This document shows positions 7,911 to 60,911 of a stretch of 60,911 bases of DNA, one piece after another. The position numbers and the translations under genes are program-made. Numbering within the stretch: the stretch's first letter is position 1; the number at the start of each line of letters is the position of its first letter. This DNA comes from a virus: positions 1 through 60,911 of the IMG/VR virus record IMGVR_UViG_3300037193_002766; one strand, given 5' to 3'. A model generated the notes under the pieces. The model saw only the letters and a list, made by a program, of their open reading frames with translations. It was not told the origin of the DNA and made no database searches.

Positions 7911-9038
7911 CTATCTGGCGACGCCGATCAGTTCGCGTTGTGGCTGCCGTTTCGCCGATGTCGACTCGACGTGTGCCCGGATCGCAGCCTGGCCTGCTCG
8001 CACGTCGGCGGCTGCCTTGGCTTTGGCGTCCGGGTCGATCGCGGCCTCCTCGCGCCGCTTGGCCGCTCGCACGTCCCGTTCGAGTGCCCGTAGCTTCTGC
8101 CGGTCCTTGTCGCCCTGCTCGTCACGCGTGTGCGTGATCGGCTTCGTCACCCCGGCCAGGTAGGCGCTGAGCGAGTGCCGGCAGTTCGGATGCATCAACC
8201 CGTCGCCGACTGCCTCGTCGACCGAACCCGCGACGTCGACGCGCACCATGCGGCCGTCGATCGTCGCATGTTCCACCTCGACCGTGCGCCGCCCTCCAGG
8301 CCCGTTGCGGGCCAGTACCTTGCCTTCCCATGGACGGCAGCGGGCGCACTCCTGAGGCGCGTTCGACACGATCACCAGATCGAGGCCACGGTCACCGAGC
8401 CGGTCCAGGTGGCCCTGCACCGCAGCCTGCGCGGTCGTCGTGCGCACCGCCATCTCCACATAGGAGGCCAGCTCCCAGTCGCGGCCAGCCCGGTCGGTGA
8501 ATCCGCTGATCCCCTTGCCCAGCAGGTCATCCAGCGCCCGCTGCGCGGTGCGCACCCGCGTGTCGGTGCCCTGCAGCGTGCCGGTCGCCACCGTGCGGGC
8601 GACGACACCGCGGTAGATGTCGGCCGTCTCCCGCACGATCCGCACATGCGTGCCCCGCGTGCGTGTCACGAGCGACCACACCAGCCGCTGCACCGCGGCG
8701 CTGCCTGGCAGCTCCGAGCGCACCGCCGCGAGCTCACCAGCACGTGCACCCCCCAGGCGGGCAAGTTCCTCGAGCGCGGCTTCACCGCCGCGCGTGTACG
8801 CAGCGGTGACGAGTTGGTCGATCGTGCCGAGACTGTCGCCAGCGAGCTTGGCGACGAGCTGTTCAGCGAACCGGCGCAGTGCGCCGAGCTGCAGCAGCTT
8901 GCGGTCCGCCCAGTCCGGCTTGGAGATGTCCGCGCGGAGCAGGATGCCGATCTGCCCGGCGAGCCGGGTTTCGGCGGCGGCGTACAGCTGGACGAGCGTG
9001 GCGGCGAGGTCCTCGGCGAGCGTGCGGTCGACCGGCAT
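7911..9038 (-). CDS. Head morphogenesis protein, Mu F / SPP1 gp7 family
   Basis: 375 aa downstream of the portal gene. Has the MHPNCRHSL motif typical of the Mu F family. Confidence 0.8.
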   Translation of the reverse strand: MPVDRTLAEDLAATLVQLYAAAETRLAGQIGILLRADISKPDWADRKLLQLGALRRFAEQLVAKLAGDSLGTIDQLVTAAYTRGGEAALEELARLGGARAGELAAVRSELPGSAAVQRLVWSLVTRTRGTHVRIVRETADIYRGVVARTVATGTLQGTDTRVRTAQRALDDLLGKGISGFTDRAGRDWELASYVEMAVRTTTAQAAVQGHLDRLGDRGLDLVIVSNAPQECARCRPWEGKVLARNGPGGRRTVEVEHATIDGRMVRVDVAGSVDEAVGDGLMHPNCRHSLSAYLAGVTKPITHTRDEQGDKDRQKLRALERDVRAAKRREEAAIDPDAKAKAAADVRAGQAAIRAHVESTSAKRQPQRELIGVAR

Positions 9039-9049
9039 CAGGTCTCACC

Positions 9050-10654
9050 TCACGCCTCAGACTGCTCGCCGCCCGCGCCCTGCTCGTCCTCGCCCTGCTG
9101 TGGCCGGTTGACCACGATCTGCCCGCCCGTGAAGGTGTCCGGGTTCTCGACTGGCGGCCCTTCGATCGCCTTGACCTCCTTGTCGACGCGCGTCTTGTCC
9201 CAGTCCGGGTGGACCATTTCGACCTTCGTCCGTGTCGACACCGCGGCGGCCGCGTCGAGCAGCTGCACGGTGCGCGCCACCGTTTCGAGGTCCTCCGCGA
9301 CACCGTCTGGCCACTCGATCTCAGGCTCGTCGACGTCGGAGGAGCCTCCGAAGTGCGCGTAGTCCAGCTGCAGCAACACCGACGACATCTCGACTAGCGC
9401 CGGCGACCAGTAGAGCGTTTTGTGGCCACGCGTGAGGTAGGTGTCCTCTTGATCGGCCGCAACCTCGGTCGCGGTCTTCAAGCCTCCCTGGGTCTGGAAC
9501 CCGAAGGTCTCGCCGCTGTACCCACAGTCCTGCACGATCGCTTGGGACAGCTCACGCGCGGTGCCCAGGTGCTCCTCGAAGCGGATCGCGAACTGCGCCA
9601 CCGTGATCGGCGTTTGGCTGCCGGGCTGCGGCAGCATGCTGAGCGCCGAGTAGACCTCGCGCTCCGGATCCCACGACGCACCTCGACCGGGGCCGTTGTT
9701 CTGCAGGTACGCGTCCGGGACGACGATGCGTCCCTTGGCGAGCCGAATGTCGCGGAGCAGCGACGTCCACACTTCGTCGAGCGCATCGAGCATCGGCTCC
9801 GCGCCGGCGATGTCCGCGCGGCCGAGCTCGCACGCGGCCGGGATCTTGCGCCAGTACTTGTTGGGCCTCATGTTGGGCACGTACCGGACCGTCAGATCCT
9901 TGATCAGGGTCTCGATGCGGTCGCCGTCCTCGACCACGTCCACGTACTCGGTGGTCTCCGCATGCTCGTTGAGCGGGATCCTGCGGCCGAGATGATCCGG
10001 GGTGCCTTCGTAGAGGCCGTGCAGGATCGCGCCCGGTTCGTGGCGTTCGAGGTGCCGGATGACCCGGTTGCCGTCGTCCTCCAGCACGCGCCAGAACGAG
10101 CACGCGGTGAGCTTGCCGCCCTGCCACTGTGGAACCGCTGCGTCCGCGTAGGTGGTGTGCATCCACGGCTTGTTGGAGATGTCGGAGTTCCACAGCGCCC
10201 GCAGGTACACGCCGCCGTGGCCGGCGCAGAGTTCGCCGGCTTCAAGGAGTGTGGCGCGGAAGCTGTGGCCGAGCAGTTCGTCGAGCCGGTCCTGGGTGGC
10301 CGTCTGTTTGGCCTTGAAGGTGGGCGGTTCGGAGAACAGCAGCTTCGACGACTTGGCCGCGATGTCGGAGGCGAGCGGGATGTGGAGCTTGGCGCGCTGC
10401 TCGCCGAGCGGAATCGGGGTACCCCAGAACCAGCGGGCAAGCCGGCCGACGACGCCACCGCGGTACTGGCTGGGGTGGTTGCTGAGCCGGTTGCGGCTGA
10501 CCGAGTCGTAGCCGTGGGCGTAGGTGCTGCCGTAGATGTCGGCTAGGTGGTCAGGGTCTCCGGTGTACCAGGCGTCCCAGGAGTCGATACGGGCGAAGAC
10601 GGGGTCGAGCTGGCGTGGTGGCCAGGCGGTGTTTCCGCCTTCGGGGAGCGGCAC
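9050..10654 (-). CDS. Portal protein
   Basis: 534 aa. GTG at 10654 preceded by GGGAG. Position after terminase. SPP1 gp6-like length. Confidence 0.85.
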   Translation of the reverse strand: MPLPEGGNTAWPPRQLDPVFARIDSWDAWYTGDPDHLADIYGSTYAHGYDSVSRNRLSNHPSQYRGGVVGRLARWFWGTPIPLGEQRAKLHIPLASDIAAKSSKLLFSEPPTFKAKQTATQDRLDELLGHSFRATLLEAGELCAGHGGVYLRALWNSDISNKPWMHTTYADAAVPQWQGGKLTACSFWRVLEDDGNRVIRHLERHEPGAILHGLYEGTPDHLGRRIPLNEHAETTEYVDVVEDGDRIETLIKDLTVRYVPNMRPNKYWRKIPAACELGRADIAGAEPMLDALDEVWTSLLRDIRLAKGRIVVPDAYLQNNGPGRGASWDPEREVYSALSMLPQPGSQTPITVAQFAIRFEEHLGTARELSQAIVQDCGYSGETFGFQTQGGLKTATEVAADQEDTYLTRGHKTLYWSPALVEMSSVLLQLDYAHFGGSSDVDEPEIEWPDGVAEDLETVARTVQLLDAAAAVSTRTKVEMVHPDWDKTRVDKEVKAIEGPPVENPDTFTGGQIVVNRPQQGEDEQGAGGEQSEA

Positions 10655-15753: not shown

Positions 15754-15999
15754 GTGCAGACATACTCAAGCCGGGACTGGCCGTACAGAGGGGAGCCCGC
15801 CGTGGCGTTTCGATGCTTGGCGACCGAATCGTGCAAGGACGGATACACCTGCCCCAGCATCTGGGTCGACGACGCCGACCCAGAGCACGTCGTGGTAGTC
15901 GGCCAGCTGATCGATCCAGGCCCAGACGTTCCGATGGCCGACGGCGAGCGCGCAGTGCGACTCCGCCGAGACACCGTCATCCGCGCCAACCTGGCGTAA
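15754..15999 (+). CDS. Hypothetical 81-aa protein, first gene of the plus-strand cassette
   Basis: GTG start after a lower-GC 217-bp spacer. No family recognised. Confidence 0.5.
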   Translation: MQTYSSRDWPYRGEPAVAFRCLATESCKDGYTCPSIWVDDADPEHVVVVGQLIDPGPDVPMADGERAVRLRRDTVIRANLA

Positions 16000-16004
16000 A
16001 GCGC

Positions 16005-16529
16005 ATGGACCTCAAGGATGTAGCTCGCCTCTTCGAGCAGTCAGCGAAGTCCGCGTTCCGTCTGGAGACGCTCCCGACCTACCTCGTGCCGCAGGAAGAA
16101 GACGCGCTCGCCGCATGGCGAGCCGGAGACCGGCGCCTGGACACACCCCAGGACAGCCCCTGGCTCGCCCGAATCAGGGCGAGCACCAACACCGGCTACC
16201 AATGGTCACGCGTCCACGTGCTGGACTACCCGCTCACCGAATACAGCGAGTTCGAGCTGTTTGGCTACCAAGCGCTGGTGGCGGCCGGCGAGCAGGTCTA
16301 CGTCGCAGACCGCGCCGACTCTCCCGAGTTGGAGCAGCTGCGCGAGGACTTCTGGGTCCTCGACGACGCCACCGTCATTCGCATGATCTACGACGCCAAC
16401 GGCCGGTTCCTGCAACCGGAACTCGTCGACGACATCGACCCCTACCTCGAAAGCCGGGACGTCGCGTTGCGTCACAGCGAGCCTCTCGCCGTTTACCTGG
16501 CGCGGCGCGAGCCGCGGCTCATCGCATGA
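16005..16529 (+). CDS. DUF6879-like protein
   Basis: 174 aa from ATG 16005 (MDLKDVARLFEQSAKSAFRLETLPTYL...). Motifs FRLET, RVHVLDYPLTEY and DFWVLDD match my recollection of DUF6879. Confidence 0.6.
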   Translation: MDLKDVARLFEQSAKSAFRLETLPTYLVPQEEDALAAWRAGDRRLDTPQDSPWLARIRASTNTGYQWSRVHVLDYPLTEYSEFELFGYQALVAAGEQVYVADRADSPELEQLREDFWVLDDATVIRMIYDANGRFLQPELVDDIDPYLESRDVALRHSEPLAVYLARREPRLIA

Positions 16530-17383
16530 ACCCCACGCCGGACGACAAGGCGAGGCTCGCGTCGACGCTCAAGAATCTCCGCGTCGACGCCGGACTCTCG
16601 ACGACCAGGCTCGCTGGCGTGTTGGGCTGGTCGCAGTCGAAGGTCTCGAAGACCGAGACAGGGCGCACCATGCCCGCGCCGGACGACGTGGCCGCGTGGT
16701 GCCGCCAGGTCAACGCGCCCGCCGGGGTGCGCGAGGAGCTGGTCGAGATCGCCGCAGCGGCCGCGGCTCAAGCCACGGAGTGGCGTCGCGAGCTGGCGCC
16801 CGGCCGTCGTCGCAAGCAGGACGACATCCGGCGCATGGAGCACAAGGCGTCGGTGATCCGGGTCTTCGCGCCGGACGTGGTCGTCGGTCTCGCGCAGACC
16901 AGGGCGTACGTGGAGAAGATGTTCCGGCTCGGCCGCAAGATCGGGCCTGTCGACGAACCGGCCGAGGATGTGATCAACGCACGTCTCGCACGCGCTGAGG
17001 TGCTCGACCGCACGGACAAGGTGTTCGTCCTGCTGATGGGCGAGTTCGCGCTTCGCCGGACCCTCATCCCCGCCGAGGAGATGCGGGCACAGATCCAGTG
17101 GCTGATCGAACTGTCACATCGGCCGAACATCGACGTCGAGGTCATCCCGTTCGCGGCCGAGGAGAAGGTGCACCAGTACAACGGGTTCGCGATCTTGGGT
17201 GACCCGGATGTCGACGATGAGGCGATCGTGCTCGCCGAGACTCTGACGCGCGGTCTGAGCATCCGTTCGAGTGAAGAGATCCGGGAGTACATCGAGCACT
17301 TCGACGCCCTTCGTGTCGCCGCTATTCGGGGCGATGAGCTGCGGGAATTCCTTCAGGAGGTCATCGACGGGCTCCCCAGGTGA
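16526..17383 (+). CDS. XRE-family HTH regulator with DUF5753 domain (WhiJ/Scr1-like)
   Basis: 285 aa, ATGA overlap with the upstream gene. HTH LSTTRLAGVLGWSQSKVSKTETG. DUF5753-like IRVFAPDVVVGLAQTRAY and FALRRTL. Confidence 0.8.
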   Translation: MNPTPDDKARLASTLKNLRVDAGLSTTRLAGVLGWSQSKVSKTETGRTMPAPDDVAAWCRQVNAPAGVREELVEIAAAAAAQATEWRRELAPGRRRKQDDIRRMEHKASVIRVFAPDVVVGLAQTRAYVEKMFRLGRKIGPVDEPAEDVINARLARAEVLDRTDKVFVLLMGEFALRRTLIPAEEMRAQIQWLIELSHRPNIDVEVIPFAAEEKVHQYNGFAILGDPDVDDEAIVLAETLTRGLSIRSSEEIREYIEHFDALRVAAIRGDELREFLQEVIDGLPR

Positions 17384-17484
17384 TTCCTCACGGCCTTGCC
17401 TAGTCTTGCTCTTCATTTGAAGTCGCGACTAACCTCGTTGGCGACATACGCGCCATAGCGAGCACGACGACCGAGGGAGAGCGG

Positions 17485-17712
17485 ATGAGCGGCCAGACAA
17501 CCTCAGGGCCGGCCGACGCCGAGCCCGTCTACACCCTCAAGGAGATCGCGCGGCCCTTGCGGGTGAGCACCGCCACCCTGCGGCGCCGGATCGCTTCAGG
17601 CGAGCTCGACGCGTTCCGGGTGGGACGCGGCCTGCGTGTCACCGAGTCGGCGCGCGACGCCTACTTCGAGCGGATCGGCTACAAGCCGCAGCGGGCGCAG
17701 GTGACGACGTGA
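17485..17712 (+). CDS. Excisionase-family (MerR-like) HTH DNA-binding protein
   Basis: 75 aa. YTLKEIARPLRVSTATLRRRIASGELDAFRVGRGLRV. RBS GAGGGAG. Confidence 0.7.
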   Translation: MSGQTTSGPADAEPVYTLKEIARPLRVSTATLRRRIASGELDAFRVGRGLRVTESARDAYFERIGYKPQRAQVTT

Positions 17713-18278
17713 CCATCACGGTGAACTGCGCGATCACCAGCGACGTCACCAGGCACCGCGCCTGGAACACCGGCAGCGGCAACGGCGAGGTGTGGCGCGT
17801 CTCCTGGAACCCCAGCCAGGCCTACACCCACGAGCAGGCCATCACCGCCATGTACATCGCCGAACTCGTCGGCAGCAACTACGCCAGCCCCCAGGACGGC
17901 ATCACCTCCCTGCCCGGCTGGGCGATCGAGCTCGGCCTGACCGCCAGCGACGCCGTGCGGCTCCTGCTCAACCACCAGTCCTGGGGCTACGCCGTCCGCC
18001 ACAGCACGCTGCCGTGGCAGCACAAGTCGCTCCTGCTGCTGCTCGGCACCTACCTGGACACCGACGGCACCTACCACCGCCCCGCCGCCAGCGAGATCTC
18101 GGACGTTGCCGGTCTCGGCGAGCAGGACACCGTCGATCTGCTCATGGAACTCGAAGCCGCGGGCTGGTTCTCCTGGCACACGGTCACCGGCACGGACGTC
18201 AACGGCCGATCGGCGCAGGACAGCTTTGCCCCCGTCCACACGGGACCCGCGCCTCCGCCACCCGCCGAGGCGATCTGA
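17709..18278 (+). CDS. Hypothetical protein (possible winged-helix C-terminal part)
   Basis: 189 aa, GTGA overlap with the upstream gene. Confidence 0.6.
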   Translation: MTITVNCAITSDVTRHRAWNTGSGNGEVWRVSWNPSQAYTHEQAITAMYIAELVGSNYASPQDGITSLPGWAIELGLTASDAVRLLLNHQSWGYAVRHSTLPWQHKSLLLLLGTYLDTDGTYHRPAASEISDVAGLGEQDTVDLLMELEAAGWFSWHTVTGTDVNGRSAQDSFAPVHTGPAPPPPAEAI

Positions 18279-18313
18279 CTACCCACTAGCCGACGAGCAC
18301 GAGGGGACACACC

Positions 18314-18508
18314 ATGCCGAACCTGGACGAGATCAGCGACGAGGAAGCCGAAGCCGGCGCGCTCACCGCCATGTGGGGACAGCTGGAGGCGTTCGCCGCC
18401 CGCTCCGGCCTGGACCTGCGGGCGGAAGTCCTTGAGGACCTCACGGACGAGGAATTCGCCGAGGCGCAGCGGACCGTCGCGTTCATGCGCGCAGGGTTCG
18501 AGGGGTAG
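18314..18508 (+). CDS. Hypothetical small acidic protein
   Basis: 64 aa, RBS GAGGGGA. Confidence 0.55.
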   Translation: MPNLDEISDEEAEAGALTAMWGQLEAFAARSGLDLRAEVLEDLTDEEFAEAQRTVAFMRAGFEG

Positions 18509-18512
18509 CGCC

Positions 18513-19016
18513 ATGCCGGTCACCGCTACCCAGGCCGCACAGCTCGCGCCCGGCTGGGAGACCACCTCGTACCACGAGGCCGGCCACGCCCTCGCGGCGC
18601 TCGAACTCGGCTTGCCGGTGCACCAGGTCAGCCTCCGCTACGAGCGCCGGTTCCTGCGATGGGCCGTGGTCGGGCAGACCGCGGTCGCACCGCCCGGTCA
18701 CACGATCGAGGTCGACGAGACCCGCGAACTGCTGTTCACCGTCGCGGGCATCGAGGCCGAGGCGCAGTGGCTCGTCTGGCGCGACAACATCGACTTCCCG
18801 CAGGAACGCCGCCTGGCCGAGTCGAACCCGGTGAACCAGGCCGGGGACATGGCCGAGATCGCAGCGTGCCTGCCCGCCGCCACCTTCACCTACGCCGAGG
18901 CCCAGCAGTGGGCGTTCAACCTGTTCGCCATCCACTGGCACACCGTCTCGACCATCGCCCAGCGGCTCCGCGACACCGGGCACATCACCGGCCGCCAGCT
19001 CGCCCACCTCGCCTGA
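18513..19016 (+). CDS. Stand-alone FtsH-like (M41-type) HEXXH metalloprotease domain
   Basis: 167 aa from ATG 18513. TSYHEAGHALAALELG matches the FtsH protease-domain signature. No AAA+ module. Confidence 0.65.
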   Translation: MPVTATQAAQLAPGWETTSYHEAGHALAALELGLPVHQVSLRYERRFLRWAVVGQTAVAPPGHTIEVDETRELLFTVAGIEAEAQWLVWRDNIDFPQERRLAESNPVNQAGDMAEIAACLPAATFTYAEAQQWAFNLFAIHWHTVSTIAQRLRDTGHITGRQLAHLA

Positions 19017-19033
19017 GCAAGGAGACCAGCGCC

Positions 19034-19237
19034 ATGCCCCGAACTCTGCCTTCCGAGTTCACCGCTGACGAACTCGACGCGATGCGCGACTGGCTCGACG
19101 ACGCCTGCCGTCAGTCCCTCGCCGACGAGGGCTTCACCGTTGACGACCTCGACGACGAGGACGTCCTGATCGGCATCAACACCCACCACATCGACGGCAT
19201 CCGGGGATTCCTCAACCTCTTCCACGACGAGGACTGA
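19034..19237 (+). CDS. Hypothetical small highly acidic protein
   Basis: 67 aa, RBS AAGGAGA, Asp/Glu-rich. Confidence 0.55.
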   Translation: MPRTLPSEFTADELDAMRDWLDDACRQSLADEGFTVDDLDDEDVLIGINTHHIDGIRGFLNLFHDED

Positions 19238-19264
19238 CCCAGCCCCGAGCAAGGAGACCCGCCT

Positions 19265-20149
19265 GTGAACACCGCCCAGCCTGTCAAGCCGCCCCGAGCA
19301 CCGGGCTTCTGGTGGGCCCTCGCCGGCTTCGGCCTGGGCTCCCTCGTCTCGGTCGGCTTCAACCTCCAGTCCGCCTGGCTCCCCGCCGCCGAACACGGAC
19401 CGAACTGGTCGCCGAGCCTCGCTTCCCAGGCCGCCGCCGTCGTGTGGCCGCTGACGCTCATCGTCAGCGTCGAGGTCCTCTCCCGCGTCACCTGGCCCGA
19501 CGGCAACGGCTGGAAGCTCGTCCGCTTCAGCGGCATCCTCGCCGTCGCCCTCGGCTCCGCAACCATCTCCTACGGCCACATCTACGAGGTCCTCATCGCC
19601 TGGGGCTACGACCGGCACCAGGCGATCGTCGGCCCGCTCGTCGTCGACGGCCTGATGCTCATCTCCGGCTTCGCCTTGGTCGCGCTCGGGAGGGCCGCCC
19701 GCGACGCGCTCCACGTCTCCCAGGAGGCCGTCGCCGAGCCTCCCGCAGTGCCCTCCCGCACCCCTGTCGTTCCTCGCCGCCCCGTCCCCTCAGGTGGCGA
19801 GGAACCCGCCGTCCCGGTCGCGTCCATCCCCCCGACCCCCGCGACCGGGACGGCACCTCAGGAGGCCTCCCAGCTTCGTCCTGAGGAGGCCTCCCAGGCG
19901 GCTCCCGAGGAGGCACGCGCCGCCCTCCATCTCGTGCAGACCAGGCGCGTCAGGAAGACCTCCCGGAAGACCTCCCGCACCGACGTCAGCAACGAGGACG
20001 TGTTCGCCGAGATCGCCTCCTACGCACGGGAGCACGACGGCGACCTCCCGACCGCGAACTGGCTGAAGAACAAGCTCACGATCGGCGCCTCCCGCGCCAA
20101 GAACCTCCTCACGGAGTACACGAACGACAAGCAGGAGGCCCTGGCATGA
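19265..20149 (+). CDS. DUF2637-like integral membrane protein
   Basis: 294 aa with 4 TM segments. ISYGHIYEVL...GPLVVDGLMLISGFALVAL fits DUF2637, a family typical of actinomycete conjugative elements. Confidence 0.7.
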   Translation: MNTAQPVKPPRAPGFWWALAGFGLGSLVSVGFNLQSAWLPAAEHGPNWSPSLASQAAAVVWPLTLIVSVEVLSRVTWPDGNGWKLVRFSGILAVALGSATISYGHIYEVLIAWGYDRHQAIVGPLVVDGLMLISGFALVALGRAARDALHVSQEAVAEPPAVPSRTPVVPRRPVPSGGEEPAVPVASIPPTPATGTAPQEASQLRPEEASQAAPEEARAALHLVQTRRVRKTSRKTSRTDVSNEDVFAEIASYAREHDGDLPTANWLKNKLTIGASRAKNLLTEYTNDKQEALA

Positions 20150-21849
20150 GCTGGCCCCCCGAAGGCTCGCAGCCGCCCAGCCCACCCCGCGTCACGCCCG
20201 CACCGCGGCCGCGTCCGGAGCGACCCTCACCGCCTGCCTCACCTGGTGAGGCGAAGGTGAAACCGCAGGCCAACACACCTGCGGCGCAGCCGCCGCAGTT
20301 CGGGCACGACGGCATCGACCCGCGCCGCGCCGCCCTGATCCTCGGCCTGCCGCTGCTCGCGATCGCAGGCACGCTGCTCTTCCTGTTCGCCTCGCCGCTG
20401 GTGTGGTGGATCGCCGTCGGCGTGGCCGTGGCGGGCGTGGCGGGAGGTGTGTTGCTGCGCCGCTCCGGGAGGGCGCGGGGTGCTCTCGGCCGTCTGCCCG
20501 GTGCCGGGAGGCTGTCGGCCGGGTTGCGGCGTGCCGCGAACGGGAGGTTCGCCCGGTCACCTCTCGGGAGGGTGGTCAACCGCGCGCTCGGGAGGCGACC
20601 GGCGGCCGCGTCAGGAGGCTCCTCGGGAGGGCCCGCGTCCCGACCGAAGGGGCTCGGCGGGAGGCTGCGGTCGATGCTCCCGTCGTGGGCGGGAGGCACC
20701 CGCGCGAAGCGTCCAGGAGGGCCGGGAGGCACCTCCTCGGGAGGCAAGCCGGGAGGCAAGCCGGGAGGCAAGCCGGGAGGCCGGCTGCGGTCGATGCTGT
20801 CCCGTCTCAAGCCGGGCGGGAGGCGTCCCGCTGGCTCCTCCGGCAGCCTGACGGGAGGCCGTTCCGGAAGGGCGGGAGCCGCCTCCCACGGCGGCTCGAA
20901 GCCGAAGCCTGGGAGCCTCCTCGGGAGGGCGTCCCGCACCGCCGGGAGGGCCGGTCGCGCGGTCGGGTCGAAGCTGTTCGGCATCCGCCGCCCCACCGCC
21001 CCGGCGGGCACGGGCGGCTCCAGCAAACCGAAGGGCAAAGGCAGGACTCCCGCCGGCGGCTCCGGCAACGGCTCGACGCTGGAGCTGGGCGTGGTGTGGA
21101 CCGGCGTCGGCAAGGCCGGCCGCCTACTCGGCCGCGGCCTGGGCGGCCTCGTCGGGCGGTTCCGGAACCGGAAGCACACCGACGAGGACACCGACGACTT
21201 CGATCCGGACTCGACCTACGAGATCGGCATCGAGGGTGAGGTCGTCAACGGCAAGCACACCGACAGCGAACTCGCTGAAATCGCGAAACAAGCGAAGAAG
21301 CTGGCCAAGAAGCGCGCGAAGAGCGCCCCGGTGTGGCCGAACGTCGACCTCGACACCCTCCCGCCCCCGCCTGCTCCCACGCCACCGCCTACTCCGCAGA
21401 ACTGGCCGGACTACGACGTCGACGACTACGCCCCCACGCCGGAGCAGCCGCCCAAGCAGTCGTTACCGGCCGAGCGGGACCACGACCCGCCGCCCTCACC
21501 ACCCGTCTCACCCACGCCTCACCGTGAGGCACCCCGCATCACCAGCACAAACGGAGGAAAAACGATGGCCGTCTCACCCACCAAGTACAACGACCTGATC
21601 ACCACCGCCACCAGCCGCACCCAGGGCTGGCAGGCCGCCGCCGACGCGTTCCGCCGCGACGCCACCGAGCTGGACGAGAAGGCGAAGGAGCACGACAACG
21701 CCGCCGCAGTGTTCGAGCAGGCCGGCAACCACGCGGCCGCCGAGGAACGGCGCGACGAGGCCCGCCAGCTTCGCGACGACGCCAACACGTGCCTCACCTA
21801 CGCCGGACGGATGCAGGAGAAGGCCAACAACGAGGTCTCCGCCGCCTGA
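20146..21849 (+). CDS. Membrane-anchored Pro/Gly/Arg-rich low-complexity protein (Spd-like by context)
   Basis: 567 aa, ATGA coupling. TM region GLPLLAIAGTLLFLFASPLVWWIAVGVAVAGVAGGVLL. GGKP x3 and a duplicated GGRLRSML motif. Coiled-coil-like C terminus. Confidence 0.6.
   Translation: MSWPPEGSQPPSPPRVTPAPRPRPERPSPPASPGEAKVKPQANTPAAQPPQFGHDGIDPRRAALILGLPLLAIAGTLLFLFASPLVWWIAVGVAVAGVAGGVLLRRSGRARGALGRLPGAGRLSAGLRRAANGRFARSPLGRVVNRALGRRPAAASGGSSGGPASRPKGLGGRLRSMLPSWAGGTRAKRPGGPGGTSSGGKPGGKPGGKPGGRLRSMLSRLKPGGRRPAGSSGSLTGGRSGRAGAASHGGSKPKPGSLLGRASRTAGRAGRAVGSKLFGIRRPTAPAGTGGSSKPKGKGRTPAGGSGNGSTLELGVVWTGVGKAGRLLGRGLGGLVGRFRNRKHTDEDTDDFDPDSTYEIGIEGEVVNGKHTDSELAEIAKQAKKLAKKRAKSAPVWPNVDLDTLPPPPAPTPPPTPQNWPDYDVDDYAPTPEQPPKQSLPAERDHDPPPSPPVSPTPHREAPRITSTNGGKTMAVSPTKYNDLITTATSRTQGWQAAADAFRRDATELDEKAKEHDNAAAVFEQAGNHAAAEERRDEARQLRDDANTCLTYAGRMQEKANNEVSAA
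20739..20782 (+). repeat. 12-bp tandem repeat gggaggcaagcc x3.6 (encodes GGKP repeats)
   Basis: Read directly in the sequence. Confidence 0.9.
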
Positions 21850-21851
21850 CG

Positions 21852-21881
21852 TCTCACCTCTCACCTCACCCCCGTCTCACC
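21852..21881 (+). repeat. Cluster of four CTCACC motifs upstream of the translocase gene
   Basis: tctcacctctcacctcacccccgtctcacc. Motif copies start at 21853, 21860, 21865 and 21876. Confidence 0.85.
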
Positions 21882-21905
21882 GCCCTGACCTGCAAGGAGG
21901 TCGTC

Positions 21906-23954
21906 GTGTCGCTCAAGTCCTTCACCATCCTCGCGGGTCTGGGCGTGACGGTGCTCGCCGCCGTCGTCCTCGCGCTGTTCCGCACGTACATGGAGGGGCC
22001 ACCGCTGTGGGCGATCGCGGCCGGCGGCCTCGGTGTGGTCGCGCTGGCCGCATGGTGGTGGCACGGCGAACTCGGCCGCGGCGCCAACTACGTCGAGTTC
22101 TCCAGCGAGGCCCGCCGCTGGATGGCCCGCATGATCACCGCTGCGGTGCTGGTGCACTGCGTGTGGCTCGTGTGGACCCTCGCCGACCTGGACTCGTGGA
22201 GGGCGCATGCGCTGCGGCTGATCGGATTGTCGCTGCTGGAGTGGGTGGTGGCGCTGGCGTGGGACCACCGCCTCACCCACCTCCTGCCGCAGGCCAAGCC
22301 CGCCGCCGAGGTCGAGGTGTACCGGCCGACGCTGGTCGCCAACAACGAGCCACGGCTGCAGCCCGCGGACGAGCGGATGCAGCTCATCCTGCAGCGAGGC
22401 GGCTGGCCGTATGTGCTGGTCACGAAGGTGTGGATGCTGCCGGACGGACACAAGGGGGCGACCTTCGAGTGCCGCGCGCTGTCCAAGAGCCTCGCATCCG
22501 AGCTCTCCGGCAAGGAGGTGAGCACGGTGAAGGCGATCGCGCCCGGCGACGAGGAAGACCTCGCGATTGCCGCCGAGGAAGAGCTGGGTGTGGACCTGGA
22601 GACCAGCTGGGTGCGCATTCAGCCGACCAGACGTCCCGGCCGGGTGCTGGTCACCATCGCCACCGAGGACATCTTCGCGAAGCCGCTCCCGTACCAGCTG
22701 GTCACCACGCTCGCGGACCCCGCCGAGCCGATCGTGCTCGGCTCCCAGGTCCACGGTGACCCTGCCGCGTTGAACGTTCGTCAGCACGGCGTGATCTGCG
22801 GTCCGACCGGATCCGGCAAGACCGGCCTGGTCAACGTGCTGTTCGCCGAGCTCACCCGCAGGCCAGGCCGGATCTTCGTCTGCGGCGTCGAGAAGATCTA
22901 CGACCTGGTCGGCCAATGGCTCGACGTCCACCTCGACACCGACAACGACCTGCCCATCACCGCGGTCGTCGGCATCGACGACACCCTGCAGCTGCTGGCC
23001 GAGGTGTACTACGAGGCCCGCCGCCGGCAGAACCTTGAGCACCACGAGCGCGCGAACCTGGAGCCCTGGTACATCGTCATCGAGGAAGCGCCTGCGGTCC
23101 TGAACAACAACGAACGCCAGATCGAGATCGAAGGCCGCAACTACAACGCATCAGCGCTGGTAGCGCACCTGGACCGCACGATCCTGTCGGTCGAGATGTA
23201 CATGAAGAAGCTGGCCCAGGAGTACGACAACGCGATGTTCGGCGACAGCGCGGCGTCGATCAAAGGCAACTCCGGCTACAAGATCCTCATGCGGTCGCAG
23301 TCCGGCGACGAGCGGTCCCGCGCGTTCGGCCGGGGCTACGCCGCGCTGCGCGACCTCAACCACCCCGGCGAGATGTACATCAAGGACAACGCCGACCCCT
23401 ACGCCGCGAAGTGCCGCTACATCAACGAGATGCACGCCAACAAGAAGCGCCTGCACGAGGGCGTTGACATCGCCACCGTGTCGCTCGCGCGATCTGCGCT
23501 GGTCAAAGCACGCGCCAAGGGGCCGTTGTCGCCGTGGATGGCGGCGTTGCCGACCCGCATGACCCGCAGTTACCGCGACTACCTGCAGGGCAAGTGCGCC
23601 CTGCCGATGGATGCGGGAACCAGCCGCATCGCGATCGAGGCCGTCGACGCCGGCACGCTGGTCGACAAGGCGATCGCCGATTTGGAGGCGCAGCTCGACG
23701 AGCGAGACGCGCGTCGCCTGCGCGTGGTCGACAACGAGCCCGCCAAGCCGCGGATGCGGGACTTCATCGCCACCACGCTGGCCGACAACACCGACGGGAT
23801 GACCACCGACGAGGTGCTGTCCGCGGTGCTCGCCGCCGGCTACGAGCAGGCGTCGAAGTCGAGCGTGGAGAACGCGTTGACCGCGCTGCGCGGCAAGGGC
23901 CGGATCCGGTCCGTCGACGGCCCCTCGGGCCGCCGCGTGCACCAGGCCGCCTAG
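21906..23954 (+). CDS. FtsK/SpoIIIE-family DNA translocase, TraB/TraSA-like
   Basis: 682 aa from GTG 21906 (RBS AAGGAGG). N-terminal TM segments. Walker A GPTGSGKTG and Walker B YIVIEEAP. C-terminal winged-helix-like tail. Confidence 0.8.
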   Translation: MSLKSFTILAGLGVTVLAAVVLALFRTYMEGPPLWAIAAGGLGVVALAAWWWHGELGRGANYVEFSSEARRWMARMITAAVLVHCVWLVWTLADLDSWRAHALRLIGLSLLEWVVALAWDHRLTHLLPQAKPAAEVEVYRPTLVANNEPRLQPADERMQLILQRGGWPYVLVTKVWMLPDGHKGATFECRALSKSLASELSGKEVSTVKAIAPGDEEDLAIAAEEELGVDLETSWVRIQPTRRPGRVLVTIATEDIFAKPLPYQLVTTLADPAEPIVLGSQVHGDPAALNVRQHGVICGPTGSGKTGLVNVLFAELTRRPGRIFVCGVEKIYDLVGQWLDVHLDTDNDLPITAVVGIDDTLQLLAEVYYEARRRQNLEHHERANLEPWYIVIEEAPAVLNNNERQIEIEGRNYNASALVAHLDRTILSVEMYMKKLAQEYDNAMFGDSAASIKGNSGYKILMRSQSGDERSRAFGRGYAALRDLNHPGEMYIKDNADPYAAKCRYINEMHANKKRLHEGVDIATVSLARSALVKARAKGPLSPWMAALPTRMTRSYRDYLQGKCALPMDAGTSRIAIEAVDAGTLVDKAIADLEAQLDERDARRLRVVDNEPAKPRMRDFIATTLADNTDGMTTDEVLSAVLAAGYEQASKSSVENALTALRGKGRIRSVDGPSGRRVHQAA

Positions 23955-23955
23955 C

Positions 23956-24046
23956 TCTCACCTCACCTCTCACCTCACCACCCGCACACGCTCATGTGTG
24001 CAGGTAGGGACGTGTGTCCGAGGGTGAGGTGAGAGGTGAGGTGAGA
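23956..24046. repeat. Perfect 24-bp inverted repeat built from CTCACC units (43-nt spacer)
   Basis: tctcacctcacctctcacctcacc at 23956-23979 is the exact reverse complement of 24023-24046. The spacer holds a GCACAC/GTGTGC mini-hairpin. Starts 2 nt after the translocase stop. Confidence 0.9.
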
Positions 24047-24074
24047 CGCCCAACCCAACCAGAAGGAGCACCCC

Positions 24075-24359
24075 ATGTACGACACCGACCAACGCGAACT
24101 GACCGAGGTCGAGCAGGCGGTGTACCTGACCTACCTGCAGCTCTCCGAATGCCCGCAAGACTGGATCCGGATCGCCCGCATCCACGAGCACCTCGACTAC
24201 CACCCCGACGACATCAGCGACGCCATCGTCTCCCTCGTCCACAACGGCGACGCCCACATCGCACCCGAGTCGAACACGAAGGTCCTCACCGCCGAAGACC
24301 ACGCCGCGGCGATCCGGGAAGGCAGCGAAGCCTGCCACCTGATCCTGTTCGAGGACTGA
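24075..24359 (+). CDS. Hypothetical protein
   Basis: 94 aa, RBS GAAGGAG. Confidence 0.6.
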   Translation: MYDTDQRELTEVEQAVYLTYLQLSECPQDWIRIARIHEHLDYHPDDISDAIVSLVHNGDAHIAPESNTKVLTAEDHAAAIREGSEACHLILFED

Positions 24360-24361
24360 CG

Positions 24362-24700
24362 ATGATCACCGCCAGAGCACTCCGACGCCATCTGACTGCG
24401 CTCGGCAAGGAACTAGCCGACAACTGCTACTGCGAAGACCTGAACTGCGAATCGGACCTGTACCACCCCTACGAAGGCACCGGCCTCGGCGTCCCCCCAT
24501 ACGGCCTGACGCTCGTCACCCCCGACGGGAAACTCGACGAGGCCCGCAACAAGGAGTACATCGCGTACTGGTGGGGCAAGAGCGCGCACCTGGACGAGGT
24601 CCAGGATCAGATCGACGTGCTGGATGACTGGGCTGAGATCCTCTGCGTGATCGAACATCGCACCGGCAGGTTCTGGCGTGGTACCGACTTCGCTGGTTGA
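24362..24700 (+). CDS. Hypothetical protein
   Basis: 112 aa from ATG 24362. The ORF-track N-terminal extension reads through the inverted repeat and is discarded. Confidence 0.55.
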   Translation: MITARALRRHLTALGKELADNCYCEDLNCESDLYHPYEGTGLGVPPYGLTLVTPDGKLDEARNKEYIAYWWGKSAHLDEVQDQIDVLDDWAEILCVIEHRTGRFWRGTDFAG

Positions 24701-24705
24701 TCCCC

Positions 24706-24746
24706 GTAGGTGTTGCCTGCCGGGGCAGGCAACGGACAACACCTAC
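24706..24746. terminator. Interrupted GC-rich hairpin after the 24362 gene
   Basis: gtaggtgttgcctgcc / ggcaggcaac...caacacctac. Confidence 0.5.
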
Positions 24747-24778
24747 CCGCTGGTGTCCGCTGCGGTGAGGCTGGACTC

Positions 24779-25201
24779 ATGAAGTTCACCCCGACGCGCC
24801 CCGACGCGCTCATCGTGACGCGCGGCTTCCTGCACCCGCTCCCGGACGGACTCCCGCCCGTCGACCTGGTCCTCGACCTGCGCCGGATCCTCGCCGACCC
24901 GGCGCACCGACCCGAGGGCGACATGCTCGACATGAACGGCCTGCAGCGCGAGGTGCGCGACTTCGTGCTCGCCACACCCGGTGCCGAGGCGCTGCTCGCG
25001 GGCGCAGTGCCGCTGCTGTCCGCAGTGGCCACGGCGAGGTTCGTCGTGGTGATGGTCGGCTGCTCCGGCGGGAAGCACCGCGCGCCGGCGATCGGCGCCG
25101 AGCTCGGCGCGCGTCTGCGGGCTGAGGGGCTGGTGGTGCCGGTGCGTCATCTGCACGTGCACCTGCCGCGCGTCGTCCGGCCGACGGAGCTCGCCGCCTG
25201 A
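24779..25201 (+). CDS. RapZ C-terminal-domain-like protein
   Basis: 140 aa from ATG 24779. VVVMVGCSGGKHRAPAIGAELGARL resembles the RapZ C-terminal IGCTGGxHRS motif. No P-loop domain. Confidence 0.45.
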   Translation: MKFTPTRPDALIVTRGFLHPLPDGLPPVDLVLDLRRILADPAHRPEGDMLDMNGLQREVRDFVLATPGAEALLAGAVPLLSAVATARFVVVMVGCSGGKHRAPAIGAELGARLRAEGLVVPVRHLHVHLPRVVRPTELAA

Positions 25202-25261
25202 GGGGGCATTCCTGGCGAGGTGTGCTTACGATGCCTGCACCCGTCAGCACTGGAGGTCGAC

Positions 25262-25477
25262 ATGCTCGTCGTGCGTGACCGCAGCCGCAACGGCAAAGCC
25301 GTCTCCTGGGGCACAGACCACGTCCGGATGCGCGAGATCGAGGCACTGGACCGCAACTTCGAGGCTGTCCCGGACTTCGGTGCCGCTCGCTACTACTGCC
25401 ACGTCAAGCGGCAGGGCCTTGCCTGGGAGCACCCGTACGACAGGGACGCCCGCCTGTACGCCGAGATCAAGCCCTGA
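25262..25477 (+). CDS. Hypothetical protein
   Basis: 71 aa from ATG 25262, preceded by GGAGG. Confidence 0.55.
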   Translation: MLVVRDRSRNGKAVSWGTDHVRMREIEALDRNFEAVPDFGAARYYCHVKRQGLAWEHPYDRDARLYAEIKP

Positions 25478-25707
25478 TGCCCGCGCTGGTGCGCCTCGAC
25501 CGGGACGACCTCGACGCCCTGGCCGCATGGCTCCGCACCCAGATCGACGACGACAAGGCCGGCCGCGCGCACGCCGCGATGCTCCAGGCGATCACACCGC
25601 ATCTGCACCAGCACTCGACCGCCGGCCAGCTCGCACGCCACACGCTCATGCAGCTCGGCTCGATCTACGACGACCAGCCCGGCTACCGCGAAGAGTGGCG
25701 GCCCTGA
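25477..25707 (+). CDS. DUF6221-like protein (short paralog of 38929-39372)
   Basis: 76 aa. C-terminal DDQPGYREEWRP matches ADRPGYRAEWRP in the other copy. Confidence 0.6.
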   Translation: MPALVRLDRDDLDALAAWLRTQIDDDKAGRAHAAMLQAITPHLHQHSTAGQLARHTLMQLGSIYDDQPGYREEWRP

Positions 25708-25756
25708 CAACGACAGCGGCCCCCGAACCGAGCTGGTTCGGGGGCCGCTGTCGTTG
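25708..25756. terminator. Bidirectional terminator hairpin (22-bp perfect stem, 5-nt loop)
   Basis: caacgacagcggcccccgaacc-gagct-ggttcgggggccgctgtcgttg, between convergent genes. Confidence 0.8.
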
Positions 25757-25757
25757 T

Positions 25758-48215: not shown

Positions 48216-49454
48216 GTGGCTAGGCCTCCGCTGGAGATCGGCACCTACGGAGAGATCTACAGGTCAGCGCGCGTGGACGGCAGATGGATGCCGTTGGACG
48301 ATGTTCCCGAGGGCGCCACGCCTGACCAGTTCAAGGCGTCGGCCCGCTACCGCCCCAAGGACGGGCACACGCGGCAGATGGAGCGCGTCGGGACCACCGT
48401 GAACAAGGCGGTGCAGAACCTCAAGAAGGCACTCGCCGAGCGACTCGGTAACAGCAAGACCGGCAAAATCACCGCAGGCACGCGGTTCAGCGTTGCCGCG
48501 GCGGAGTACCTCAGCCTCGTGCGCCAACGACAGGTCGGTACCACCTACGACAGGTACAAGGGCCGCTACAAGTGCCACCTGGCGCCCGCACTCGACGGGC
48601 TGTTGATTCGCGAGTGCACGCCGAAAAGGCTCACCGAGGTCTTCCGCGAATTGGAGGCCGCTGGCCTATCCGCCCAAACGCGGCGTGGCATCAAGACCGT
48701 CCTCAGCGGCATTCTGCAAGAGGCCATCAACCAAGGCGCCCTGGAGGTCAACCCGGCGCGGTCGATGGAGCGCATCAAGGGGCAGCGCCGCAAGAAGCAG
48801 GTCGCGCTCGACGGCACCGCGCTCGTCACCTTCTTCGCGCGGCTCGACGGCGACGATGTCGCATGCCGGCAGGACCTGCCGGACTTCCTTCGACTGCTCT
48901 TCGGCGTCGGGTGCCGCTACGGCGAGGCGCTCGCCCTGCGGTGGCGCGACATCAACCTGACCGACGAAACGGTCATCGCCGAAGACGGCTACGGCAACGA
49001 GGTCGAGCTGCCTCCTCGCAGCATCTGGTTCAACGGCAACCTGGTGCACATCACCGGTCAGGGCGTCGTTCGCCACGAGGGCAAGACCTTCACGAGTAAC
49101 GGCGTGGTCATCATGCCGGAGTTCCTGTACCTGATGCTGTTGATCCGCAAGCCTGTCGGTGCCGGGCTTGACGACCCGGTGTTCCCGAGCCAGACGATGG
49201 GGTGGCGGTCGCCGTCCAACATGCAGCGGTCGGTGCGGCGGATGCGGATCCGCATCGGTTACCCGAAGCTGAGGACCCACGACGGCCGGCGGTCCGTCGC
49301 GACGGCGCTCGACAAGGCCGGGCAGACCGGTCGGGTCATCGCTCAGGTGCTGCGGCAGGCGAAGCCGTCGATGGCGCAGGACCGGTACATGGATCTGCGG
49401 TCGCCGAGCGCTGAAGCGGCGGCTGCGCTGGATCGCCTTCATGGGGCGGCCTGA
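48216..49454 (+). CDS. int: Tyrosine integrase
   Basis: 412 aa from GTG 48216 (the ORF track starts at TTG 48165). Arg in CRYGEALALRWRDI, H-x-x-R in THDGRRSVAT, and a C-terminal Tyr in AQDRYMD. Confidence 0.9.
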   Translation: MARPPLEIGTYGEIYRSARVDGRWMPLDDVPEGATPDQFKASARYRPKDGHTRQMERVGTTVNKAVQNLKKALAERLGNSKTGKITAGTRFSVAAAEYLSLVRQRQVGTTYDRYKGRYKCHLAPALDGLLIRECTPKRLTEVFRELEAAGLSAQTRRGIKTVLSGILQEAINQGALEVNPARSMERIKGQRRKKQVALDGTALVTFFARLDGDDVACRQDLPDFLRLLFGVGCRYGEALALRWRDINLTDETVIAEDGYGNEVELPPRSIWFNGNLVHITGQGVVRHEGKTFTSNGVVIMPEFLYLMLLIRKPVGAGLDDPVFPSQTMGWRSPSNMQRSVRRMRIRIGYPKLRTHDGRRSVATALDKAGQTGRVIAQVLRQAKPSMAQDRYMDLRSPSAEAAAALDRLHGAA

Positions 49455-59672: not shown

Positions 59673-59683
59673 GACGGATCACC

Positions 59684-60297
59684 TCACCCTCGCCGTGCGA
59701 ACGCCCTGAGTGCTTCGCGGCCGTCTTCGCCGGACAGGACGATCGGTTCCTTGGATGCCACCTGCCGCCACCTGGACTGGTCGGACAGGCCGACGAGCTG
59801 GAACCGGAACTGGGTCCAGCTCAGGCCGTTGCGGAGCTCGGCGCGGAGGTCGCTTCGGTACTCGCGGCGCCAGTCGGCGACGAGGAGTGCCCAGAAGCGG
59901 ATGACGAGGTCGAGCCAGTGGGTTCCGGGGCCGCCCCCTTCGGGGCGTTCGCTTCCCCCGCGTCGTCCGCGTCAGCGTTCTTGTTGTTGCGCTTGCGGTA
60001 GACGGCCATGCATCGCTGGAGTACGTCGCCGAGCCGGTCGATGCCGATGCCGCGCTCGACGATCTCCTCGACCGCGTCGGCGCCGATGAGGACACCGACC
60101 ATGCTCTTGATCTCGGTGATCCCGACGTTGCGTTTGGCGTCGTCCTCGCCGGTTTTGACGCGGTGCACGAACAGCACGAGCTTGGCTGGCAGGGTGGCGG
60201 GCAGCGTGTAGATCTTGCCCATGAGCCGGATCTTCGGCGCTGATGCGTCTTCCTCGGCCCAGTCCTCGTCGAAGTCGATCGCCAGATCGTCGAGCAT
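59684..60297 (-). CDS. Tail assembly chaperone G-T fusion via -1 programmed frameshift
   Basis: The -1 frame is open from 59971 to the TGA at 59684-59686 and has no start codon of its own. It reads ...THWLDLVIRFWALLVADWRREYRSDLRAELRNGLSWTQFRFQLVGLSDQ.... Candidate slip runs are GGGGGAA at 59953-59959 and G5 at 59934-59938. Confidence 0.7.
59821..60297 (-). CDS. Tail assembly chaperone (G form)
   Basis: 158 aa from ATG 60297 (ATGA overlap with the major tail stop). Lies between the tail tube and tape measure genes. Confidence 0.75.
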   Translation of the reverse strand: MLDDLAIDFDEDWAEEDASAPKIRLMGKIYTLPATLPAKLVLFVHRVKTGEDDAKRNVGITEIKSMVGVLIGADAVEEIVERGIGIDRLGDVLQRCMAVYRKRNNKNADADDAGEANAPKGAAPEPTGSTSSSASGHSSSPTGAASTEATSAPSSATA

Positions 60298-60770: not shown

Positions 60771-60911
60771 GTGATGGGCACCGCACCGGAGAGGAACCGG
60801 GCGGAGATCGGGAAGGCGAGGTTGTTACGGGCGCGTGAGAGTTGGTCGGTAGACCTCGACGCGGAAGTTCACGACGTACTCGTGCCGGCCGTTGGCGTCG
60901 CGTCCCATGTA
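60771..60911. repeat. Terminal direct repeat, copy 2 (identical to 1-141)
   Basis: Read directly. Confidence 0.95.

Follow-up and report, generated by a model that had tools for sequence, protein, structure and literature searches.

The closest known counterparts of the system studied here are the TraB/clt pairs of Streptomyces plasmids. In the published accounts on which we draw, TraB is laid out as a membrane anchor, an FtsK-like motor and a C-terminal domain that recognises clt (PMC4447253). Its hexamers use the C terminus to recognise the repeated 8-bp TraB recognition sequences (TRS) of clt, and the clt loci described there are clusters of direct 8-bp repeats (PMC4170104, PMC4447253). 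A further motif, the sps palindrome CGTCACGTGACG, lies within spdA beside traB and is bound by SpdA2 (PMC4170104). Here we analyse the IMG/VR virus record IMGVR_UViG_3300037193_002766 over its full length of 60,911 nt, hereafter the window. An earlier note, made from its sequence alone, had pointed to clusters of the hexamer CTCACC on either side of a gene for a TraB/FtsK-like translocase and had proposed them as candidate clt sites. We find that these arrays are far from random, that they are strongly conserved at fixed positions around the translocase gene, and that they change in a concerted way. From these comparisons of sequence we lean, if only slightly, towards seeing them as cis-acting recognition sites in double-stranded DNA (dsDNA) of the clt/TRS kind, whose most probable binder would be the C-terminal winged helix of the translocase itself.

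CTCACC arrays around the translocase gene

The window holds 92 copies of CTCACC, against 47 +/- 7 in dinucleotide-preserving shuffles, and none of 100 shuffles reaches 92. The clustering of these copies is far above chance: in five places three or more copies fall within 30 bp, when 300 first-order Markov simulations have 0.01 such clusters on average and never more than 1. The earlier note had proposed such a count as a check on its idea, and the count agrees with it. The four clusters that it had listed all exist, although several lie one position away from where they had been placed. Its inventory was nevertheless incomplete, since a fifth cluster (array A) had been overlooked, and the cluster at 21495 (array B) lies inside the coding frame of a 530-aa gene and is not intergenic. 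We call the arrays A to D and give their positions in Table 1.

The units of the arrays are 5-7 bp long (TCACC, TCTCACC) and follow each other with a composite period of 12 bp. Array D begins 2 nt past the stop codon of the translocase gene and is a perfect 24-nt inverted repeat (100% complementary) around a 43-nt spacer; the earlier description of this structure, including its GCACAC/GTGTGC hairpin, proved correct. Arrays A ('++--'), B ('+++--') and D ('++++/----') have dyad symmetry, and array C alone is purely direct. In array A, two copies of CTCACC on the + strand are followed by GGTGAG and GGTGA on the - strand. These inverted copies overlap both the Shine-Dalgarno (SD) sequence of the 530-aa gene, which is GGTGAGG, and its GTG start (20257). 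The cores of array B are read in two different codon phases, with Ser encoded by the rare TCA (6 of the 108 Ser codons in five other coding regions of the same gene island); across loci, the encoded peptide varies and the DNA motif is constant. Array C lies about 25 nt upstream of the translocase start and reads GTCTCACC TCTCACC TCACC ... GTCTCACC, then CCTGACCTGCA. Positions 21853-21894 are 76% complementary to 23999-24040 over 42 nt, and the translocase gene is thus bracketed by an extended imperfect inverted repeat.

Table 1. Coordinates of the arrays, the translocase gene and neighbouring features in the window, with the positions of the arrays in close loci
Feature	Position in window	Strand	Description	Position in close loci
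Array A	20225..20260		between DUF2637 gene and 530-aa gene; palindrome CCTCACC-T-GGTGAGG	~-1600 to -1700 from translocase start
Array B	21494..21529		CTCACC direct x3 (+: 21495, 21507, 21518), then palindrome CCTCAC-C-GTGAGG at 21517-21529	~-410 to -450 from translocase start, in most
Array C	21851..21894	+	CTCACC direct x4 (21853, 21860, 21865, 21876), directly 5' of translocase SD	~-55 from translocase start
TraB/FtsK-like translocase, 682 aa	21906 (GTG)..23954 (TAG)	+	membrane helices, motor domain, C-terminal winged helix	
Array D, left arm	23956..23979	+	TCTCACC TCACC TCTCACC TCACC; CTCACC at 23957, 23962, 23969, 23974	+3 to +9 from stop; L016 -27 (inside gene)
Array D, spacer	23980..24022		sub-hairpin GCACAC 23984-23989 / GTGTGC 23996-24001; conserved TGCAGGTAG 23999-24007	
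Array D, right arm	24023..24046	-	GGTGA GGTGAGA GGTGA GGTGAGA; CTCACC on - at 24023, 24028, 24035, 24040	+70 to +76 from stop; L016 +41
Regulator gene	16115..17383	+	HTH_31 and DUF5753 (Pfam 4e-35); left part of island	
Small excisionase-family HTH_17 protein	17485..17712	+	Pfam 1.4e-8, TIGR01764	
DUF2637-like membrane protein, 294 aa	19265..20149	+	weak Pfam match	
530-aa gene	20257 (GTG)..21849	+	Pro-rich linker and helical C-terminal domain	
Canonical hairpin	25707..25757		23-bp perfect stem, 5-nt loop; island end, meets - strand early genes	

A word-indexed search gave 29 translocase proteins at 40-100% identity, and DNA was compared at 11 other loci, three of which are IMG/VR viral contigs of 50-61 kb. 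Several of the others carry phage genes (terminase, endolysin, methylases). A scan of species-representative genomes returned no close relatives, and a metagenome scan no additional locus. The arrays recur in every close locus, at positions fixed relative to the translocase gene, and a twelfth locus shows the same arrays. Array A is kept in L002, L004, L005, L006, L017, L018 and L019; it is missing, as is array C, from the clade at 40% identity (L003, L016). Conservation culminates in array D. In a 4.2-kb alignment of 11 loci, whose translocases are 40-79% identical, the two arms of D are the most conserved 24-nt segments, their identity to the window being 0.97 (left) and 0.98 (right) for an alignment mean of 0.63, and none but the most conserved protein motifs approach these values. 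The exact 18-mer GGTGAGGTGAGAGGTGAG, searched in 2.9 million viral contigs, occurs in this family alone, apart from one match in L024, which we set aside as a coding-region coincidence.

The spacer of D has a constant length across loci, 44-46 nt by a common definition of the arms (43 nt between the 24-nt arms of the window), and its left half comes in two unrelated versions. In two of the 11 loci it is inverted (L003 10011-10056 and L018 10063-10106, corresponding to 23979-24023 of the window): CTACCTGCA replaces TGCAGGTAG, and identity to the reference spacers is 0.69-0.70 after reverse complementation against 0.53-0.59 in the forward direction. We considered this 9-mer as a third site and rejected it, because its two other copies are read as Tyr-Leu-Gln, in codons that are frequent, and are probably due to chance. 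The most telling variant is L016, where the unit has changed to GTCTCATCTCAC at once in the left arm of D, in the right arm of D and in array B, 2.4 kb away. A requirement for a hairpin is by itself insufficient to explain the change in B.

Two observations concern copies of the motif at gene starts. At L004 10119-10145, the right arm of D directly borders the ATG with which the next gene begins, and it would have to be that gene's ribosome-binding site. In the window, GGTGAGGTGA-type sequences occur on the - strand at 59679-59688 and 9042-9050, just 5' of where the tape-measure gene and gene 7911-9038 start. They appear to be the SD sites of these two genes, and isolated copies of the motif thus have an ordinary explanation.

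The translocase and its distant relatives

The AlphaFold2 (AF2) model of the translocase, built with 20 homologues (predicted local distance difference test, pLDDT, 78.5), contains four long hydrophobic helices within residues 3-126, a central alpha/beta domain and a C-terminal helix-helix-helix-beta-hairpin domain at residues ~617-682 (nt 23754-23951). Its best Foldseek matches in the PDB are the FtsK motor domains 6t8g, 6t8b and 2ius (E ~4e-12, template modelling score TMt 0.55-0.59), followed by the coupling protein TcpA. When the C-terminal 77 residues are modelled alone (pLDDT 89), they resemble the winged helix-turn-helix (wHTH) DNA-binding domains of Fur, Zur, PadR and MarR at TM 0.70-0.76. 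Sequence searches with the translocase gave P-loop matches, all below threshold, and the profile of the family gives a collinear alignment to pIJ101 Tra over its ATPase region (hhalign E 3.8e-4). As modelled, the architecture is therefore of the TraB type, with a membrane anchor, an FtsK-like motor and a C-terminal recognition domain; judging by sequence similarity, the family is remote from characterised plasmid proteins. The earlier description of a TraB-like translocase with a winged helix thus holds for the architecture, but the gene resides in the genome of a temperate phage and not in a Streptomyces plasmid or an element of actinomycetes that is both integrative and conjugative (AICE).

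An exhaustive profile search gave 298 cluster representatives at E <= 1e-3 and 98 at E <= 1e-30, the latter mostly full length. Thirteen further loci were taken from viral contigs; for the distant representatives P0036, P0069 and P0042, no loci were found in viral contigs. Three of the thirteen (L029, L031, L038) keep the CTCAC core and, where the translocase gene ends (3'), the layout with a pair of inverted arrays. L029 has CCTCACCTCAC-TCAC-TCACCTCACC, a 43-nt spacer and the inverse array. In L031, CCTCACCTCAC-GGAC-CTCACCTCACC lies within the 3' end of the gene and the inverse array spans the stop codon; the counterpart of array B, with six copies, is 505 nt upstream of the translocase. In L038, a 51-nt spacer separates the arms of a perfect 20-bp inverted repeat, ACTCACACACTCACTCACCT, which lies 15 nt past the stop. 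Other loci show the same layout with another motif: CAAAC/GTTTG in L042, whose 8.2 kb contain 10 copies, 7 of them at most 125 nt past the stop, GTCATATG (TGTCATATG) in L035, where all four copies of the locus are at the 3' end of the gene, and CTTCAC/GTGAAG in L041. Across loci, array D starts between -76 and +16 nt relative to the translocase stop. The residue that precedes the invariant Asn of wHTH helix 3 is E, D or N in the CTCACC group, Y in L038, T in L042, R in L035 and H in L041. This residue differs in step with the motif, which is the pattern expected of cognate pairs of protein and site.

Some distant homologues differ in their surroundings or their size. Those on the Pseudonocardiaceae plasmids pAmyja1 and pGBA129-24a adjoin 0.6-1.2 kb of repeat-rich non-coding DNA with short direct and inverted repeats (L025 3613-4789; L026 2222-3407 and 6549-7128), and AGGCGGGAGA occurs in L026 at 6529 (+), 6613 (-) and 6704 (+). 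In P0150, P0158, P0167 and P0176, proteins of 600-1000 aa, the winged-helix region of the family is matched 6-9 times in tandem.

What the arrays might do

If the arrays are recognition sites, array D would be the principal one, with two inverted arrays of four cores each, ~45 nt apart, adjoining the stop codon. Array B would be a second site throughout the close family, and A and C would be accessory sites in the clade above 50% identity. The membrane-anchored hexameric motor would assemble on the arrays of a circular phage genome, excised or replicating, and would then pump dsDNA across a hyphal wall or a septum, much as plasmids are pumped by Streptomyces TraB. The arrays would in this way define the DNA to be exported, and the inverted layout with its fixed spacer would act as a loading platform for the hexameric motor. 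No protein of the module is better conserved than the translocase, and no other has a DNA-binding fold in all loci. As the universal array D also adjoins the end of the gene, the wHTH of the translocase is the most parsimonious choice of binder. The HTH_17/excisionase protein was discarded in that role for its poor conservation. The regulators of the island are swapped between loci (HTH_31 or GntR/UTRA) and the arrays stay identical, and the GAGATGA of L016 and the non-SD motifs of L042, L035 and L041 disfavour the anti-SD of the ribosome as a conserved host partner. The link between sites and translocase drawn in the earlier note thus gains from conservation, layout, concerted change and the combination of an FtsK motor with a wHTH; the binding by the translocase and the translocation of DNA are what we infer from them. 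A more far-reaching idea is that a family of temperate tailed phages of mycelial actinomycetes carries a complete and self-specific system for dsDNA transfer, in which a TraB-like pump is paired with clt-like arrays of its own, and spreads between hyphae or across septa as naked DNA, free of virions. Such a phage would at the same time be conjugative. We regard it as an attractive but doubtful extension.

Several observations weigh against recognition by the translocase. Array D is dyad-symmetric with a core of 5-7 bp, unlike the direct 8-bp clt repeats that have been published, and arrays A and C are placed where operators or translational elements would be. Foldseek groups the C-terminal domain with the wHTH of Fur, PadR and MarR, and FtsK gamma is not within its top 50 structural matches. 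The correlation between helix 3 and motif comes down to one locus per motif type. Furthermore, the CTCACC core is the same across proteins that are 27-40% identical and differ in their helix-3 residues, so that a conserved host partner fits as well as TraB. Six distant loci lack arrays, and several of these are unaligned over the C-terminal domain. Finally, homogenisation of the arrays by gene conversion may give the same picture as selection by a binding protein.

The placement of A and C brings up the idea that the arrays are operators of a kil-kor-type circuit. A repressor bound before each cistron (the 530-aa gene, an internal start giving a 94-aa product, the translocase and the downstream genes) would silence a toxic transfer operon in the lysogen, and this repressor could be a small protein of the island or the wHTH of the translocase acting in autoregulation. 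Such a circuit has a precedent, since traB needs repression by TraR/KorA in Streptomyces plasmids (PMC4447253). The dyad symmetry of A, B and D is like that of sites for dimeric regulators, A overlaps an SD and a start codon, C is 25 nt upstream of the translocase start, and the C-terminal wHTH is most like the DNA-binding domains of Fur/PadR/MarR repressors. Yet, no sigma-70-like promoter was found at any array, or indeed anywhere in 15.5-26 kb, the dedicated regulators differ between loci (HTH_31/DUF5753 or GntR/UTRA) under an identical motif, and the HTH_17 protein is poorly conserved. Moreover, the sole universal site, D, is at the 3' end of a gene, the 40% clade does without A and C, and B is part of a coding frame and 70-100 nt away from the internal start. 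We judge an operator role to be rather unlikely; such a role and one as recognition site are not mutually exclusive.

The arrays might also work at the level of RNA. As RNA, array D would fold into a hairpin of -72.5 kcal/mol (z = -7.6), its pairing is kept in 95% of cells, five pairs have changed on both sides, and the two single changes in the arms give U.G on the + strand. The hairpin would be a signal for processing, stability or attenuation in a polycistronic mRNA, with CUCACC copies mimicking the anti-SD and sequestering SD-like GGUGAGG sequences or pairing with the right arm of D, and a downstream RapZ-C-like protein (24779-25201), whose RapZ C-terminal domain is RNA-binding, may assist. 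GAGGTGA is complementary to the 3' end of 16S rRNA, and the 530-aa gene, other genes of the phage and, in L004, the gene that follows D have it as their SD. However, for A, B and C the folds do not surpass those of shuffles (z = -0.9, +0.25 and +0.6), and the changed array B of L016 folds worse (z = +2.3); the GAGATGA of L016 loses the SD-like GG core and is yet retained in three arrays; and the layout is unchanged with CAAAC, GTCATATG and CTTCAC, which bear no relation to an SD. No Rfam family reached the gathering score, the matches below it being generic hairpin matches to models of eukaryotic miRNA precursors. A simple terminator, which the earlier note had mentioned and put aside, can be rejected for D: it is absent from the terminator-like sites of our scan, its loop is 43 nt long and it has no T-run, i.e. 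no U-tract in the transcript. Co-oriented genes follow D in most loci, canonical hairpins occur elsewhere, and in L003 and L016 a separate one, GC-rich and with a short loop, stands right after D. The concerted change in L016, the position of B in a coding frame, the lack of structure in A-C and the location of D at a place where no stop is required argue that the sequence of the arrays matters, and not their pairing alone, and we take an RNA role to be improbable. Lower still do we rate an element of recombination or replication, whether an inversion switch, a hairpin origin with initiator repeats or a partition centromere, which we think very improbable. It would account for the inversion of the spacer in two of 11 loci and for the bracketing of the translocase gene by inverted copies of a ~42-nt element, and RepAM of pMEA300 does bind repeated 8-mers within a hairpin-forming ori (PMC2440964). 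But the island yielded no gene for a recombinase, Rep or ParA/ParB, a distance of 16-24 kb separates it from the integrase and the primase-polymerase, and no locus has the gene in the other orientation. With 43 nt, the segment is too short to be inverted by a recombinase, and rare strand-switch flips at a perfect palindrome explain the inverted spacers.

The island, its phage genome and the known systems

The first and the last 141 nt of the window are the same sequence (1-141 = 60771-60911), so that the contig is a complete genome of ~60.8 kb, circular or terminally redundant. By PHROG, it encodes a tailed-phage set of large terminase, portal, major head protein, tape measure and minor tail protein; a methyltransferase, a primase-polymerase and a tyrosine integrase (48216-49454) are also present. 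The portal is closest to those of Streptomyces phages (44% identity). The window is a temperate actinobacterial siphophage-like genome. We found no isolate phage or plasmid similar to it at the DNA level by megablast against plasmids and phages, and no AICE-type Rep in the window. An origin from a plasmid or an AICE was rejected because there were no megablast matches and the PHROG matches are those of a tailed phage. Nearly all genes are on the - strand, the exception being a 10-kb + strand island at 15.8-25.7 kb (15800-25707) with, in order, the HTH_31/DUF5753 regulator, the HTH_17 protein, the DUF2637-like protein, the 530-aa protein, the translocase and several small genes. A transfer-like module of the Streptomyces type thus sits inside a phage genome, on the strand opposite to most genes, and the same island also occurs in other phage-like contigs of 27-61 kb. 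Its core proteins match no PHROG or PADLOC model. A defence system was considered and discarded, PADLOC returning weak P-loop matches and nothing else.

The genes around the translocase are conserved to different degrees. A GntR/UTRA regulator occupies the place of the HTH_31/DUF5753 regulator in L002, L003, L004, L006 and L018, and L019 has an HTH_31 regulator. The HTH_17 protein is merely 27-46% identical among loci. Relatives have a gene of 269-298 aa at the position of the DUF2637-like protein, which shows no BLAST similarity to pIJ101 SpdB. The 530-aa protein has no Pfam, PHROG or NCBIfam assignment; its frame runs uninterrupted in the window from GTG 20257 as far as the stop at 21849, and it is likewise open in all ten other loci covering the region. 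Inside this frame, all loci conserve an SD (GGAGG) and an ATG (21552-21567; ATG at 21565), which suggests an internal start giving a 94-aa helical product, and the 33 nt just upstream (21530-21562) have a nucleotide conservation of 0.88. The same gene contains a 12-nt tandem repeat, CAAGCCGGGAGG, in 3-4 copies (20733-20781). The RapZ C-terminal domain protein is encoded three genes after the translocase and is also found in L002, L005 and L006. The canonical hairpin at the end of the island is probably a real bidirectional terminator.

If the arrays are loading sites of the translocase, they provide a sequence-defined and easily testable clt for a previously undescribed TraB family. The natural variants CTCACC, TCTCATC, CAAAC, GTCATATG and CTTCAC would then be a route to understanding how an FtsK-like motor picks its DNA. 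Tailed temperate phages would have recruited conjugation-type modules for dsDNA transfer, blurring the boundary between phages and AICEs, and would have a virion-independent route of spread in mycelial bacteria. Should the arrays instead be operators or RNA elements, they would still form an unusually conserved regulatory code for a toxic operon.

How do the arrays compare with other repeat-based systems? The omega protein of pSM19035 and the ParR/parC pair exemplify operator-centromeres, in which heptads or iterons are bound by small repressors. Like them, the arrays are made of consecutive 5-7-bp units, direct and inverted, that precede several genes; unlike them, they have no RHH/ParR-type (ribbon-helix-helix) protein or partition ATPase that we could find in the island. 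Origins of the RepAM type (PMC2440964) are a formal alternative, and no initiator was found in the island. The likeness to FtsK gamma and its FtsK-orienting polar sequences (KOPS), or to SpoIIIE and its recognition sequences (SRS), is mechanistic: a hexameric motor with a C-terminal wHTH reads short G-rich or C-rich dsDNA motifs, and the motor domain of FtsK is the best structural match of the translocase. Yet KOPS and SRS are dispersed, polar and chromosome-wide, whereas the arrays form a local, dyad-symmetric cluster, and FtsK gamma stays outside the best 50 structural matches of the C-terminal domain. As in the SpdA/SpdA2-sps system, a short palindrome (CCTCAC-C-GTGAGG, CCTCACC-T-GGTGAGG) occurs 1-3 times in or at the start of a traB-adjacent gene, forces a peptide motif on the encoded protein and is conserved across otherwise divergent elements. 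However, no SpdA homologue was identified in the island, the half-site is CCTCAC rather than CGTCAC, and the palindromes are embedded in longer arrays, which also form the inverted repeat after traB.

The comparison with Streptomyces TraB/clt remains the closest. Among the differences, the host is a tailed temperate phage genome, extra arrays stand 5' of three cistrons and in a coding frame, and the protein is remotely similar to pIJ101 Tra, its binding to the arrays being a prediction. The analogy in geometry that the earlier note had drawn does not extend to the repeats themselves: as far as the published accounts of clt used here go, the repeats there are direct 8-bp ones, and here we find 5-7-bp cores with a composite period of 12 bp, in two inverted, dyad-symmetric arrays around a fixed spacer of ~45 nt. 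For the adjacent GntR-type regulator (kor/traR), the module has a candidate counterpart in most relatives, and the window has HTH_31/DUF5753 instead. What the two systems share, on the same accounts, is a cluster of short repeats at the 3' end, or just past it, of a translocase gene whose product is membrane-anchored and FtsK-like and carries a winged helix, and a repeat sequence that is specific to the clade of elements concerned.

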